NCBI GenBank assembly: GCA_963664825.1
Contig: OY761614.1
Coordinates: forward strand, 2,304,001-2,368,000
DNA from: an uncultured Holophaga sp.
GTDB taxonomy: Bacteria; Acidobacteriota; Holophagae; Holophagales; Holophagaceae
DNA: 64,000 nt
Direction of reading: 5' to 3'
Shown in pieces: positions 15,856 to 64,000 of the stretch. The notes beneath the pieces are model-generated. The model was not told the DNA's origin, ran no database searches, and saw only the letters and a program-made list of their open reading frames with translations. Numbering within the stretch: position 1 is the first letter of the stretch; each line of letters starts with the position of its first letter. A program made the translations under genes and the position numbers.

Positions 15856-16074
15856 ATCAGCGTGCATCTGCGTTCATCATTGTTCAAAAAAATTCAACTC
15901 TGATGCACGCCGATGAACGCCGATAGAAGCCCTGAGACTGAGCTCTCGGCACCTCCTGTTGGGGGCGGTTGTCCCGTTCCTACACCGTGATGACCACGAT
16001 CTCCGGATCCACTTCGGCCTTGAGGATGCCCTCGATGGCCACCAGTGTTCCCGTGAGGCCTGCGGGGCAGGTGG
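15856..16074. repeat. Left direct repeat: family A palindrome plus duplicated nfu 3' end
   Basis: Near-identical to 17368-17577; hairpin arms 15856-15884 and 15896-15924. Confidence 0.95.
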
Positions 16075-17367: not shown

Positions 17368-17577
17368 ATCAGCGTGCATCTGCGTTCATCATTGTTCAAA
17401 AAAATTCAACTCTGATGCACTCCGATAGAAGCCCTGAGACTGAGCTCTCGAAGGTTCCTGCTGGGGGCGGTTGTCCCGTTCCCTACACCGTGATGACCAC
17501 GATCTCCGGATCCACTTCGGCCTTGAGGATGCCCTCGATGGCCACCAGTGTGCCCGTGAGGCCCGCGGGGCAGGTGG
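17368..17577. repeat. Right direct repeat: family A palindrome plus native nfu 3' end
   Basis: Matches 15856-16074 but lacks one 10-mer unit in the hairpin arm. Confidence 0.95.
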
Positions 17578-18043
17578 TGCAGGCGCCCTGGTAGCGGATC
17601 ATCACCTGTTTCTCGTGGCGGCCGACGATCTCCAAACCTCCGCCATCGGCGGCCAGGGCGGGGAGGATCTGGATGGTGAGGACCTTGCGGACTTTCTCCA
17701 GGAACTCGTCATTGGGATCGCACTGGATGGAGGGGGGACCGGCCTTCTCTCTCCCCGCGGAGGGAGCCGTACCCAGGCCCTCGGCGGCGCGGATGGGGGG
17801 CGCTAGTTTGGGCAGCAGTTCGCTCCAGCCGATGTCGTCGTCCTTGGTGATGGTGAGAAACCTGTCCTGCATGAAGACCGATACGACGTGGCCCACGGCA
17901 AAGAGGGCCTTGGCCAGGGGATCGGCCTCGGCGATGGTGGCGTCGGGGAAGCTCTTGGGAAACCCCAGGGCCACCGGTTGGCGCAGCACGAACTTCACCG
18001 CGTTGGGATTGGGCGTGTATTCGATCTCGGCGATCTTGGGCAT
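17483..18043 (-). CDS. NifU/Nfu-type Fe-S carrier (Nfu_N plus NifU domain)
   Basis: TPNPNAVKF; LAADGG..YQGACTTCP. Confidence 0.9.
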   Translation of the reverse strand: MPKIAEIEYTPNPNAVKFVLRQPVALGFPKSFPDATIAEADPLAKALFAVGHVVSVFMQDRFLTITKDDDIGWSELLPKLAPPIRAAEGLGTAPSAGREKAGPPSIQCDPNDEFLEKVRKVLTIQILPALAADGGGLEIVGRHEKQVMIRYQGACTTCPAGLTGTLVAIEGILKAEVDPEIVVITV

Positions 18044-18086
18044 GGAGAACCTCTGATACCAAGTTGCAGTCAATAAAGATGAAAAC

Positions 18087-19919: not shown

Positions 19920-19937
19920 GGTGGGGGCCAAGAAAGA

Positions 19938-19979
19938 TGAACCGCAGAGGGCGCAGAGGAGAAAAATAAGAGCGCAGAG
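19938..19979. repeat. Family B half element between sufD and sufS
   Basis: tgaaccgcagagggcgcagaggagaaaaataagagcgcagag resembles the reverse complement of 2027-2068. Confidence 0.7.
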
Positions 19980-19997
19980 AAGAACGTGGTTCGGTTC

Positions 19998-61394: not shown

Positions 61395-62831
61395 CTACCA
61401 CTTGACCCGGACGCGATAGCTCAGCGTCGCGCTGCCCTCGGCGGGCACGTCCACCTTGAATTTGGCGGTGCCCGCGGCCTCCTTGGTGAAGGGATGGCTC
61501 TTCTCGATCATCTCCCAGTCGCCGGAAATGGGCTCCAGCACCGACACGGTGACGGCCTCCTTCTTGGCATTCTTCAATTCCACCTGGAAGGCCAGTTCCA
61601 CCACATTGCGCCAGGCCCCCTGTTTGCCCAGGCTCTTGTAGTCCGTCTGCTTGCGCCGGGCCGTGATATCGAAGGCGTCCCCCAGCTTGAGGCGCACCTT
61701 TTCATTCCTGGGCGTGTGGTCGATGGCATCCTCCCCCACGAACTGCGCCCGGCCCTCGCTGTCCCGTTTATAGACCCGCACCGTGCCCTTGGGCAGGGGC
61801 ATGCCCATGCGACTCTCGGTGCGGTTATCGAATTCCACGAAGACACCCACCTTCAGCTTGTCGCCCAGCTCCCCGTAGTTGCCCTGGTAGTAGTAGCTAT
61901 CGCCCTTGAGCAGGTATTCCTTGCGCACGGGCACGCCGGAGGCCGAGAGCAGGGCCACCTGCTTGGTCTGGTTCTCCTTGAGGGTGGTGGGGCGGTCCAG
62001 GGTGTAGAGGTGGTATTCGAAAAGGCTCTCCTCCTTCATCTGAGGGGCGGCATCGAAATCGACGACCTTGGCCCGGGTCGTCATTGTGGTGTTGGGCCGC
62101 CGAGTCTGGACGCGGTTCACATCCCCGGCCACCAGTTGCAGGGTGGCATTGGGATAGGCCGCGCCGCTTTGGTTGGTGAGGGTCACCCAGCCGCTGAGAT
62201 CCAGGGCCTTCTCGTCGGGCGAGAGATTGGCAACATAGTCGGCCTTCCAGGCCAGTCCCCCCGTGAGGTAGCTCAGCTCCAGCTTCTGCGCCTTCTCGGC
62301 CCCGCTATGGAGATCGACCACGAGGGTGGGCCGGGCCCGCAGGTTCTCGGGCACCTTGGGGTAGATAATGCGCCCCGGGATAGAGGTCTCGATGCGATCC
62401 GGGAACTGAAGGACGACGCCCTGGTTGGTGGCCAGCACCGTGGCGTCTTCCCGCACTTCCTTGGCACCGGCGCCCTCGGCGTTGGGCACGCTGCGCACGA
62501 GGGTCACCTTCTGTCCAACATACTTTTCCAGCAGCTTGGTGGGGGTGAGCAGATCGAAATCGAAATTCTGTTCCACTACCCAGAAATCCTTGGGGAGCGT
62601 GAGATTGCGCAGCAGGGCCGTCTCGGGCCGGATCTGGGCCGAAACCTCCTGGAAGGCCAGGGACAGATCACCCTTGGTGAGCCGTACCTCCCGCTGGTCC
62701 TTCACCAGGGCCAGGTTCTCGTTATAGATGGTGACGGCCAGCGACTGCTGATCCTTGAGAGTGGTGGTGATCTCTCTGGGGCTCTGGGCAGCGAGTGCGA
62801 AGGCAAAGGGGGCGAGAAGCAGGGCGCGCAT
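61395..62831 (-). CDS. DUF4139 domain secreted protein
   Basis: VTIYNENLALV, SYLTGGLAWKADY, EYHLY, IDHTP; RBS aaggag. Confidence 0.88.
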   Translation of the reverse strand: MRALLLAPFAFALAAQSPREITTTLKDQQSLAVTIYNENLALVKDQREVRLTKGDLSLAFQEVSAQIRPETALLRNLTLPKDFWVVEQNFDFDLLTPTKLLEKYVGQKVTLVRSVPNAEGAGAKEVREDATVLATNQGVVLQFPDRIETSIPGRIIYPKVPENLRARPTLVVDLHSGAEKAQKLELSYLTGGLAWKADYVANLSPDEKALDLSGWVTLTNQSGAAYPNATLQLVAGDVNRVQTRRPNTTMTTRAKVVDFDAAPQMKEESLFEYHLYTLDRPTTLKENQTKQVALLSASGVPVRKEYLLKGDSYYYQGNYGELGDKLKVGVFVEFDNRTESRMGMPLPKGTVRVYKRDSEGRAQFVGEDAIDHTPRNEKVRLKLGDAFDITARRKQTDYKSLGKQGAWRNVVELAFQVELKNAKKEAVTVSVLEPISGDWEMIEKSHPFTKEAAGTAKFKVDVPAEGSATLSYRVRVKW

Positions 62832-62864
62832 GGGGAACTCCTTGAGGGGGTGCATGGATAGTCT

Positions 62865-63215
62865 CTACAACTTGGGACGTACGCGATAGAACAGCGTTGC
62901 GCTTCCTTCGGCAGGGACCTCCACCTTGAATTTGATATTGCCACCGGCCTCCTTGGTGAAGGCGTGGCTTTTCCGGACCACTTCCCAACGCTCGCCGATG
63001 GGCTCCAATACGGAAACGCTGACAGGCTCCTGCTTGGCATTCTTTAGCTCCACCTCAAAGGCGACTTCCAACACCCAGCGCCAATCACCCTGATGACCGA
63101 GGCTCTTGAAATCCGTCTGCTTCCGGTGAGCCGTGATATCGAACGCGTTGCCCAGTTTCAGGCGCACCGATTCATTCCTGGGCGTGTGATCGATGGGATC
63201 CTCACCCAGGAATTG
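62865..63215 (-). pseudogene. 3' remnant of a diverged DUF4139 paralog
   Basis: Colinear with about 61395-61745 (QFLGEDPIDHTPRNE..YRVRPKL); 5' part missing. Confidence 0.85.
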
Positions 63216-63216
63216 T

Positions 63217-63558
63217 GGATGTGCCTACACCGTGGGCAACATCCTCGGCTGTGGCTTCCTGGAGAAGGTCTATGAGAATGCCCTTGCCCACGAGCTTCGC
63301 GCTTCGGGCCTGAAGGTTCAGCAGCAGTGGAGGATCCCAGTCCATTAAAGAGGTCTCCTTGTCGGAGACTACGCCGCGGATCTTCTCGTCGAGGACGCAC
63401 TGCTGGTTGAGCTGAAAGCTACCAAGGCACTGGATGAAATCCATTTCGCCCAATGCCTGAACTACCTCAAGGCCACTGGTCTTCAGGCCTGTCTTCTGAT
63501 CAACTTTGGAGCACCAAGAGTCGAAGTCCGTCGCATGGTGAACCACTTTGAAGGCTGA
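63217..63558 (+). pseudogene. GxxExxY protein, 5' truncated, in-frame TAA at 63346
   Basis: GCAYTVGNILGCGFLEKVYENAL..ADLLVED..VELK..QCLNYLK..LLINFG; absent from the ORF track. Confidence 0.92.
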
Positions 63559-63563
63559 ACCCC

Positions 63564-63791
63564 ATCGGCGTGCATCTGTGTTCATCATTGTTTCAAAAGC
63601 AATCAACTCTGATACAAGCGGATGAACGCCGATAGAAGCCGCAAAGGGATCATGGTAGAAGCCCTGGACGGCCTCTCCGAGAGGGACATCGGATGCGTCT
63701 GCACCGGCAGCAGCACCCTCAGAGGAATCCCATCTGCGTGCATCTGCGTTCATCATTGTTCAAAAAAAAATCAACTCTGATGCACTACGAT
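63564..63791. repeat. Two tandem family A palindromes (63564-63633 and 63732-63792)
   Basis: Same arms and A-rich spacer as the 15856 and 17368 copies. Confidence 0.92.
63622..63731 (+). pseudogene. Second GxxExxY remnant (N-terminus only) between inverted arms
   Basis: MNADRSRKGIMVEALDGLSERDIGCVCTGSSTLRG; the GC..T..L.G part aligns with GCAYTVGNILGCG. Confidence 0.55.
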
Positions 63792-63851
63792 ATCGGAAAT
63801 CCGCATCAATGCTGCTTTGCCGTATCCTGAAGCCCTCTTCCCGGAGTTCCC

Positions 63852-64000
63852 ATGTCCGTGCCCATGCTCGATCCCATGGCCTTGCGCGTGTTAGGGGCGC
63901 TGCTGGAGAAGCAGATGAGCACGCCGGAGTACTATCCACTCACCCTCAACGCGCTGGTGAACGCCTGCAATCAGAGCAGCAACCGGGACCCTGTGATGCG
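63852..64000 (+). CDS. YceH/DUF480 family protein (partial)
   Basis: [31 protein letters not shown]. Confidence 0.92.

Follow-up and report, generated by a model that had tools for sequence, protein, structure and literature searches.

Inverted arrays of 10-nt words around GxxExxY nuclease genes in an uncultured Holophaga and its relatives: a candidate class of selfish DNA

Near one end of a 64,000-nt stretch of the genome of an uncultured Holophaga sp. (the window, whose numbering is used below; positions 2304001–2368000 of contig C1 of G000, a single-contig genome of 3.47 Mb with 63.7% G+C), remnants of two genes of the GxxExxY family (PF13366, TIGR04256) lie among short inverted repeats, here called arms. 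The locus raises the question of whether such a gene and its arms form one unit, and whether that unit is mobile, as an initial annotation made from the sequence of the window had proposed. Comparison with related genomes indicates that the unit is probably a cassette, in which the gene for a PD-(D/E)XK nuclease of about 120 residues stands between inverted arrays of two to four phased 10-nt words. In the clade of the window protein the words take the form GATGAAC(G/A)C(N); the left arm is at the ATG or immediately upstream of it, and the right arm closely follows the stop codon. The existence of the cassette, the clade-specificity of its words and its gain-and-loss behaviour are well supported; the mechanism by which the unit spreads is one that we infer.

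A probable decayed cassette cluster in the window

We think it likely, on balance, that GxxExxY cassettes stood here in tandem and have decayed, leaving one truncated gene (element 1), one internally deleted element (element 2) and one arm stump (table 1). In frame 1 of 63151–63800, the pseudogene of element 1 can be read from about residue 8 to the stop codon at 63556–63558, through a single in-frame TAA at 63346–63348 that occupies the Y position of a conserved HYDG. Its two halves match PF13366 at profile positions 8–51 and 54–117 (E = 1.6e-12 and 1.2e-18) and pass the curated cut-offs of both family profiles, with 48.3 and 68 bits for PF13366 (cut-off 22) and 48.2 and 71.5 bits for TIGR04256 (cut-off 35). 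With X at the stop, 71 of 108 residues (66%) are identical to those of the nearest intact congener gene, and the motifs of the family, GxxExxY and D...E-x-K, are present as GFLEKVY, ADLLVED and VELK. A gap of 5 nt separates the stop codon from the right arm, which starts at 63564.

The peptide encoded by 63652–63735 in element 2 aligns by BLASTP with residues 5–22 of a congener protein (10 identities in 18 positions, E = 2e-5 in a single comparison). In a tblastn search with 108 GxxExxY proteins, element 2 is matched at E = 6.7e-5; the Pfam and NCBIfam profiles have no match in its interior at E ≤ 1. The pseudogene ending 5 bp before a right arm, the second GxxExxY-like N-terminus behind a spacer and a left arm, and the closure by a further right arm, spacer and partial left arm are thus all as the initial annotation had described them, and its idea of decay to mini-elements is illustrated by element 2. 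Neither copy has an intact frame: element 1 has the TAA and lacks its N-terminus, and element 2 retains about 18 alignable codons.

The two arms at 63564–63592 and 63605–63633, of 29 nt each, are 72% complementary, and 63557–63616 recurs as a direct repeat (87%) at 63725–63784. The 23-mer arm, with up to three mismatches, is found four times in the window and not once in 100 shuffles; the 13-mer left-arm word pair, with up to two mismatches, is found 18 times against a control mean of 2.17 and maximum of 6. At the cut end of the pseudogene, a duplicated fragment of the neighbouring DUF4139 gene abuts it and marks a rearrangement scar. Over 62000–64000, the contigs of four public runs are short fragments that break at the repeats, and none spans the element; no RNA run is listed among those holding the locus.

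Table 1. Coordinates of features in the window (A, left arm; A', right arm).
Feature	Position	Strand	Remarks
GxxExxY (PDDEXK_3) pseudogene, element 1	63214-63558	+	N-terminus truncated, profile start at position 8; in-frame TAA
Right arm A' of element 1	63564-63592	+	ATCGGCGTGC ATCTGTGTTC ATCATTGTT; 10-nt words; outer end 63592
A-rich 12-nt spacer between outer ends of elements 1 and 2	63593-63604	.	Loop of hairpin H1 (63564-63633)
Left arm A of element 2	63605-63633	+	AACTCTGAT ACAAGCGGAT GAACGCCGAT
Interior of element 2, 98 nt	63634-63731	+	ATG at 63652; GxxExxY N-terminal remnant at 63667-63720 (residues 5-22 of relatives); remainder of gene deleted
Right arm A' of element 2	63732-63760	+	
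Second A-rich spacer	63761-63772	.	
Partial left arm of third element	63773-63791	+	AACTCTGAT GCACTACGAT; no recognisable sequence beyond
Duplicated C-terminal fragment of DUF4139 gene	62865-63167	-	74/99 residues identical to residues 387-485 of parent (61395-62855)
A'-spacer-A hairpin of the window family	15856-15924	+	First part of direct repeat 15856-16074
A'-spacer-A hairpin, one 10-nt word fewer in A arm	17368-17426	+	First part of direct repeat 17368-17577
Gene-less remnant of another GxxExxY cassette family	19937-19997	-	GAACC left end and CTCTGCG-word right arm; intact cassette here in G004 and G006

Arms and words follow the protein clade

Matches to PF13366 occur in 31 of 41 related genomes, and 27 full-length GxxExxY genes were fetched from eight congeners. 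Bracketing was tested at 26 loci, comprising 25 of these congener genes and the intact gene of G000. The inverted repeat between upstream and downstream flanks exceeds the maximum of 500 random positions at 22 of them; L005, L016, L020 and the intact G000 gene fall below it. The arms are phased word arrays that vary by protein clade (GACACAAAG, CACGGAG, CGCGAATG, GCCAAG, GCGAAGG, GGATGAAC and others), and start codons frequently lie inside the left arm. G000 itself has two GxxExxY genes besides the window remnants: the intact one is followed by a hairpin of GCGAAG-type words, and the other, which is frameshifted, stands between inverted CAGTGAGAAC-type arrays.

The closest relatives of the window protein (62–70% identity to the reference, L011) bear GATGAAC-type words. 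At least two such words are present at seven of the 11 genus loci whose protein is at least 49% identical to the reference, versus one of the 17 below that value; these counts include same-site orthologues, and for distinct sites the figures are about five of seven versus one of 12. The words follow the protein, not the host, and the co-variation of protein and arms that had been named as a check on the proposal is observed.

The same clade in other phyla

A broader sample was drawn with a six-sequence alignment of the clade (A2) and covers this one clade. It gave 580 confirmed relatives, of which the best 80 loci were fetched, 73 with both flanks. These best 80 loci, at 56–69% identity, represent at least 10 phyla; their hosts include Acidobacteriota, Planctomycetota, delta- and alpha-proteobacteria, Cyanobacteria, Verrucomicrobiota, Chloroflexota, Actinomycetota and NC10. 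Cultured hosts in this set are, among others, Holophaga foetida DSM 6591 (L063, with canonical arms) and Geothrix paludis SG195 (L061). The best flank-to-flank inverted repeat exceeds all 500 random G000 positions at 60 of the 73 loci and their 99th percentile at 66. When mismatched upstream and downstream flanks of the same set are paired as the control, 25 of the 73 loci exceed the 99th percentile and 43 the 95th; this control is harsh, because the arms resemble each other across loci.

The arms are nearly uniform, with AACC(G/A)C.GATGAAC(G/A)C.GATGAAC... upstream and the reverse complement directly after the stop codon, and the left arm commonly contains or precedes the ATG. Words of the form GAT[GA][ACG]AC number at least two in the 300-nt flank at 64 of the 80 loci and at least three at 53, compared with 30 and 4, respectively, of 2000 random G000 stretches. 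Their orientation is canonical (sense left-arm words upstream) at 44 loci, inverse at two and unclear at 34; both the window pseudogene with its right arm and element 2 with its two arms fit the canonical layout. Gene and arms stay associated from phylum to phylum, and the arm–open reading frame (ORF)–arm arrangement, proposed as a unit from the window, is recurrent in this protein clade.

No vehicle could be identified from plasmid and phage records. At E ≤ 1e-10 the family is found in 7 of 72,556 plasmid records, each at less than 60% identity and each typed as non-mobilizable, and in none of 50,697 phage records.

On contig C1 of G016, an element resembling insertion sequence (IS) IS5 (e.g. 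L028–L034, L188 and L189) carries a complete armed GxxExxY cassette behind its transposase gene. Of the roughly 30 copies of this element, most are internally deleted, with 54 N-terminal codons left. The 49 PF13366 matches of this genome were considered as an amplified mini-element, and hence as evidence of cassette mobility; this was rejected, since they are passengers of the IS5-like element.

The cassette of G016, demonstrably a passenger, lends some colour to the view that arms in general are moved by another enzyme (an IS transposase, an integrase or a hairpin-acting host pathway) and that GxxExxY merely rides along, as does the persistence of arm families in genomes in which no cognate gene was detected. 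We nevertheless consider this very unlikely. G000 has no match to the transposase associated with repetitive extragenic palindromes (REPs), RAYT (Y1_Tnp, PF01797), at E ≤ 0.01, in a search whose control was positive in 6 of 14 reference genomes; the 60 cassettes above are armed with no transposase noticed in the 700-nt flanks (arm positions were inspected; no transposase scan was made); and the co-variation of words with the GxxExxY clade would be left unexplained.

The nuclease

An AlphaFold model of the clade protein, with a 60-sequence alignment as input, has a mean pLDDT of 95.3. Its Foldseek neighbours are Cas4 SSO0001 (4ic1, E = 7e-4), enzymes resembling lambda exonuclease, and Hjc, an archaeal Holliday-junction resolvase of similar size (2wcw, TM 0.46–0.48). 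A sequence-profile search of the PDB found no related solved structure, the only match being 2f8l (E = 0.0026). With Hjc, the Cas4 core and lambda exonuclease, GxxExxY shares the PD-(D/E)XK fold and the catalytic E, D and E-x-K, but no detectable sequence relationship, and it has no iron–sulfur cluster motif. Because conservation is complete or at least 90% at E28, D67, E77 and K79 (alignments A1, of 21 sequences, and A3), the intact clade protein is predicted to be, and likely is, an active nuclease.

In a census of PD-(D/E)XK proteins, PF13366, a large family, is given with function 'Unknown' and 'multiple transfers' (PMC3424549). In the literature covered, from which subscription journals are excluded, GxxExxY was seen as a passing mention of a gene neighbour, and no description of an association between the gene and arms was found.

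Hairpins of the window family in G000

With a profile built from nine copies, G000 is found to hold about 10 full hairpins of the window family, four of them inside the window, and 4–5 partial ones. Their arms contain two or three 10-nt words with the consensus ATCNGCGTKC or GATGMACGCN. The full copies are all of the order A'–spacer–A and have a conserved loop region, CATCATTGTT-A-rich-AACTCTGATG, with unrelated DNA outside the arms; the opposite order, A, about 20 nt and A', is seen at two loci (1911.2 and 1945.8 kb). Folded as single-stranded DNA, two hairpins give −15 and −16.2 kcal/mol (z = −4.1 and −2.6), and the truncated hairpin H2 gives −5.7 kcal/mol (z = −1.0). Three hairpins are followed by AGAAGCC(CTG), which resembles the start of the gene region of element 2. 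The inverse hairpins were considered as circle junctions, or as the facing ends of two tandem elements with lost interiors.

The sole G000 gene adjoining ATCNGCGTKC arms is the broken one in the window. The system is for this reason dead in G000, and the approximately 14 hairpin loci are fossils; no intact gene of the cognate clade is present in the genome, so the present activity for which an intact copy elsewhere had been invoked is not borne out. The arm pattern of the window family is found in 10 of the 41 genomes, with 16 hits in G000, nine in G004 and four in G006, and none for the reversed control.

These copies bear on the view that the locus has no wider meaning and arose locally, when a terminator-like hairpin next to a dead gene was duplicated in tandem. 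Such an origin would suit the broken state of both window copies, the only moderate folding of the hairpins, as in H2, and the fact that the pair of hairpins 46 kb away belongs to a segmental duplication; but with the full and partial copies elsewhere in the genome, a family extending to nine other relatives with zero reversed-pattern hits, and arms matching those of the clade in other phyla, it is hardly credible.

Gain, loss and copy number

Congeners vary in which cassettes and gene-less arm pairs they have, and in how many. For 14 of the 27 congener loci, representing seven sites, both flanks lie together in G000, and the GxxExxY gene is present at none of the seven: four are clean empties with short intergenic DNA, two have lone right arms, one of them at 19937–19997 in the window, and one has about 2 kb of DNA. 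The presence/absence polymorphism anticipated for a mobile unit is thus found. The site of the window locus is similarly variable in relatives. G004 has 146 nt without gene or hairpin; in G001 there is a small ORF, again without a hairpin; G005 combines the small ORF of G001 with a solo hairpin of the window family; and G002 has 1.7 kb of other DNA. Where two genes occupy the same site, they may differ more than their surroundings: L003 and L019 share 57% protein and 64% nucleotide identity versus 84–87% in the flanks, and L022 and L026 share 79% nucleotide identity versus 89–95%. Such divergence points to rapid evolution or to replacement at the site.

The CCACGGATGAAC arm family gives 36, 34, 32, 27, 16, 9, 8, 1 and 0 hits in nine congeners, whereas its reversed control gives none. 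One G007 pair encloses the gene of L018, and the 11 others that were read are gene-less pairs in short intergenic gaps, preceded by A-rich and followed by T-rich DNA.

The mismatches between paired arms follow a rule. In 11 distinct G007 pairs (loci L171–L186) the four variable word positions agree in 9 of 44 cases and the remaining positions in 245 of 252; with one pair counted twice, the variable positions agree in 11 of 48 cases versus 22.7 ± 3.5 for shuffled words. The left arm has the order outer–variable–GAAC and the right arm outer–GAAC–variable. The window family obeys the same rule, A' having G then T and the reverse complement of A having T then G. This systematic non-complementarity therefore favours an oriented recognition signal and disfavours a plain stem as the selected feature.

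Two isolated copies of the CCACGGATGAAC family may be mentioned. The only one in G000 (L141:848-1075; 887.2–887.5 kb) is a pair that encloses about 150 nt and no gene; it lies beside a hairpin of the window family and contains a 30-nt stretch that recurs many times in five congeners. In G007 a lone left arm (L187; G007:C1:1204428-1204455) abuts a host gene, and the ATG of its last word appears to be the start codon of that gene.

Gene-less hairpins of G000 lie at synteny breaks, in a sample too small for a test. Of the flanks at 789.7 kb, one alone is conserved. The flanks of the 243.8-kb hairpin are separated by 2–5 kb in relatives, and those of the 367.5-kb hairpin by 198 kb in G007, other genomes having them on separate contigs; the pair at 887–889 kb encloses DNA that is non-syntenic in five congeners; and a hairpin near a nifU-like gene sits exactly at a duplication boundary. 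The flanks are together in relatives for one of six hairpin regions (the window locus only) versus seven sites (14 of 27 loci) for the cassettes, again a small sample.

Another reading is that of a persistent or domesticated host system (for example in repair, recombination or defence), with arms that act as operators or RNA stems in its own regulation or processing and polymorphisms that are losses only. The genes are single-copy, mostly intact and at orthologous sites in several species, the cassettes lie between co-directional genes with tiny intergenic gaps, and the A-rich and T-rich borders of the G007 gene-less pairs resemble bidirectional terminators. A precedent exists in the ORF-bearing intervening sequence (IVS) of 23S rRNA, whose 428 nt are closed by a 28-bp terminal stem that RNase III cuts (PMC4990558). 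We regard a host system as unlikely, however. The spread of the armed clade over at least 10 phyla at 56–69% identity and the divergence of same-site orthologues, down to 57% at the protein level, argue for transfer or turnover; arms that systematically fail to pair at the variable word positions would be odd for a plain RNA stem; and arm copy number ranges from 0 to 36 among congeners.

How the unit may spread

We put forward, tentatively, the possibility that a class of prokaryotic selfish DNA not described before has GxxExxY proteins as its enzymes. These minimal nucleases would read the 10-nt words, the mismatched arms would serve as an orientation mark on a folded strand, as in attC or REP hairpins, and cutting would seed gene-less pairs and drive deletions, duplications and synteny breaks. 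On the cassette reading, which we favour, the nuclease would recognise its own words, one word per helical turn setting them on one face of the DNA, and would cut at or near the arms, or at a hairpin or cruciform formed by them. Host repair or recombination would afterwards insert, delete or copy the unit. The gene-less arm pairs would be internally deleted relics, like element 2, or copies acted on in trans.

Several observations weigh against the cassette reading. The interiors of the 11 gene-less G007 pairs, 20–150 nt long, are mutually unrelated, and tblastn with the 108 GxxExxY proteins found no convincing gene remnant in 16 G007 arm loci (E of 0.001 or worse, mostly arm-encoded peptides). 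A gene of the L018 type (at least 96% identity) is found only in G007 and G008, two of the five genomes with at least 16 CCACGGATGAAC hits; for the other three, G001, G006 and G005 (16–32 hits), the assemblies are 76–93% complete. The window-family arms likewise adjoin no listed GxxExxY match in any of the nine other relatives that hold them. GxxExxY genes are single-copy per clade and genome, with no recent intragenomic copy of a gene-bearing cassette seen, and the only amplified GxxExxY sequence (about 28 N-terminal fragments and two full copies, in G016) rides the IS5-like element. Many genes occupy orthologous sites in two to four species, and the polymorphisms could therefore all be losses; in this the genes look more like persisting RAYT genes than like hopping ISs. 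At the empty sites no target-site duplication is readable, the intergenic flanks being too diverged. Finally, most gene-less units of G000 have the order A'–spacer–A, with outer ends facing, an arrangement that one would not expect from the simple model.

Some of the same facts would be explained if the word arrays were an independent REP-like family and the GxxExxY gene a homing-type invader, which cuts the centre of the palindrome and is copied into it, the gene-less pairs being its targets. Gene-less pairs would then be expected to outnumber gene-bearing ones, as they do by far (one gene-bearing pair among the 36 arm hits of G007), and to have unrelated interiors; the co-variation of word and protein is equally expected from target recognition. 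Homing into pre-existing arrays nonetheless seems to us decidedly improbable. The four clean empties of G000 are without any palindrome, and arms and gene therefore came or went together; element 2 is a mini-element derived from the gene; and an arm of some 30 nt is very scant homology for repair-mediated copying.

Comparison with known systems

The analogy that the initial annotation drew with RAYT/REP or IS/MITE (miniature inverted-repeat transposable element) pairs holds in part: inverted repeats surround one gene and an internally deleted mini-element exists, but G000 has no RAYT gene and no known transposase lies between the arms. Like ISs and MITEs, the cassettes have terminal inverted repeats round one gene and, in element 2, an internally deleted derivative. 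Unlike ISs, they have neither a DDE nor any other known transposase, the only ORF between the arms being GxxExxY, and they do not occur as multiple identical gene-bearing copies.

Like the cassettes, REP doublets forming hairpins (REPINs) and their RAYT genes combine a single-copy gene flanked by inverted palindromic repeats with many more gene-less pairs in intergenic DNA; inheritance is largely vertical, the gene stays at a fixed site and the repeat sequence is specific to the gene clade. These features of REPINs and RAYTs are as reported in PMC3116915, PMC3337134, PMC3733652 and 10.1101/2022.05.22.493013. Hairpins dispersed in many copies, as expected of REPINs, are also found here (about 10 full ones in G000). 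Unlike RAYT, which is an HUH enzyme of the Y1 type, the GxxExxY enzyme has the PD-(D/E)XK fold, and unlike those of REPIN copies, the interiors of the gene-less pairs are mutually unrelated. REPs are defined as 20–40 bp long, one end bearing an unpaired GTAG or CGTC tag (PMC3733652). The cassette arms are, in contrast to such tagged palindromes, arrays of phased 10-nt words, and no GTAG or CGTC tag was seen at arm ends on reading the G000 copies by eye, no formal scan being made.

The integron offers another likeness. In attC cassettes an ORF is followed by an imperfect inverted repeat with conserved unpaired positions that mark the strand, and such cassettes stand in tandem and have variable centres. 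Unlike attC, the GxxExxY arms lie on both sides of the ORF.

A small ORF between terminal inverted repeats is also found in the IVS of 23S rRNA. In Coxiella burnetii the helix-45 IVS is about 430 nt long, with one small S23p ORF enclosed by terminal inverted repeats whose pairing yields a long stem, and its sporadic distribution suggests transfer (PMC4990558). The cassettes differ in that they lie in intergenic DNA, encode a nuclease rather than a four-helix bundle and have arms that are word arrays with systematic mismatches. The window locus is accordingly flanked by the DUF4139 gene on one side and another protein gene on the other, and not situated within 23S rRNA; an Rfam scan of 63100–64000 gave no match.

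The link between protein clade and flanking 10-nt words leads to a testable claim, that the protein reads its own arms, and cultured relatives offer ready pairs of cognate protein and DNA. If the enzyme does move the unit, the result would be a transposition-like system that relies solely on a restriction-endonuclease fold. Many of the unexplained intergenic palindromes of Acidobacteriota, Planctomycetota, Cyanobacteria and other phyla would then be accounted for by gene-less pairs, and the selfish-DNA reading would, if true, give a function to a very large orphan protein family. In genome annotation, arms serve as markers of insertion, deletion and rearrangement sites.

The nifU region

The initial annotation had reported the same units flanking a nuclease cassette 46 kb from the locus, and had concluded that they can carry cargo. 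The hairpins there are real, but they are parts of a duplication of about 210 bp that includes the 3' end of a nifU-like gene (17483–18073, minus strand). The copies at 15856–16074 and 17368–17577 are identical in 200 of 209 aligned columns, the hairpin being the first 60–70 nt, and the gene of a 368-residue HSDR_N protein lies between them. The nifU 3' end (about 190–210 nt) is duplicated in four congeners including G000, the others being G006 (C163:16310-17606), G007 (C1:1206199-1207845) and G008 (C5:21485-25926). G000 has the HSDR_N gene as cargo, G006 a small ORF and G007 an AT-rich methyltransferase-like gene; on reading the duplications of G006 and G007, no hairpin was seen in either. 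Because these two hold other cargo without a hairpin, the nifU 3' end is a hotspot of integration or duplication, and the hairpin was duplicated because it is located there. The transport of cargo by the arms is therefore not upheld. The duplicated hairpins (15885–15924 versus 17397–17426) differ by exactly one 10-nt word, so that the arms change by whole-word steps.

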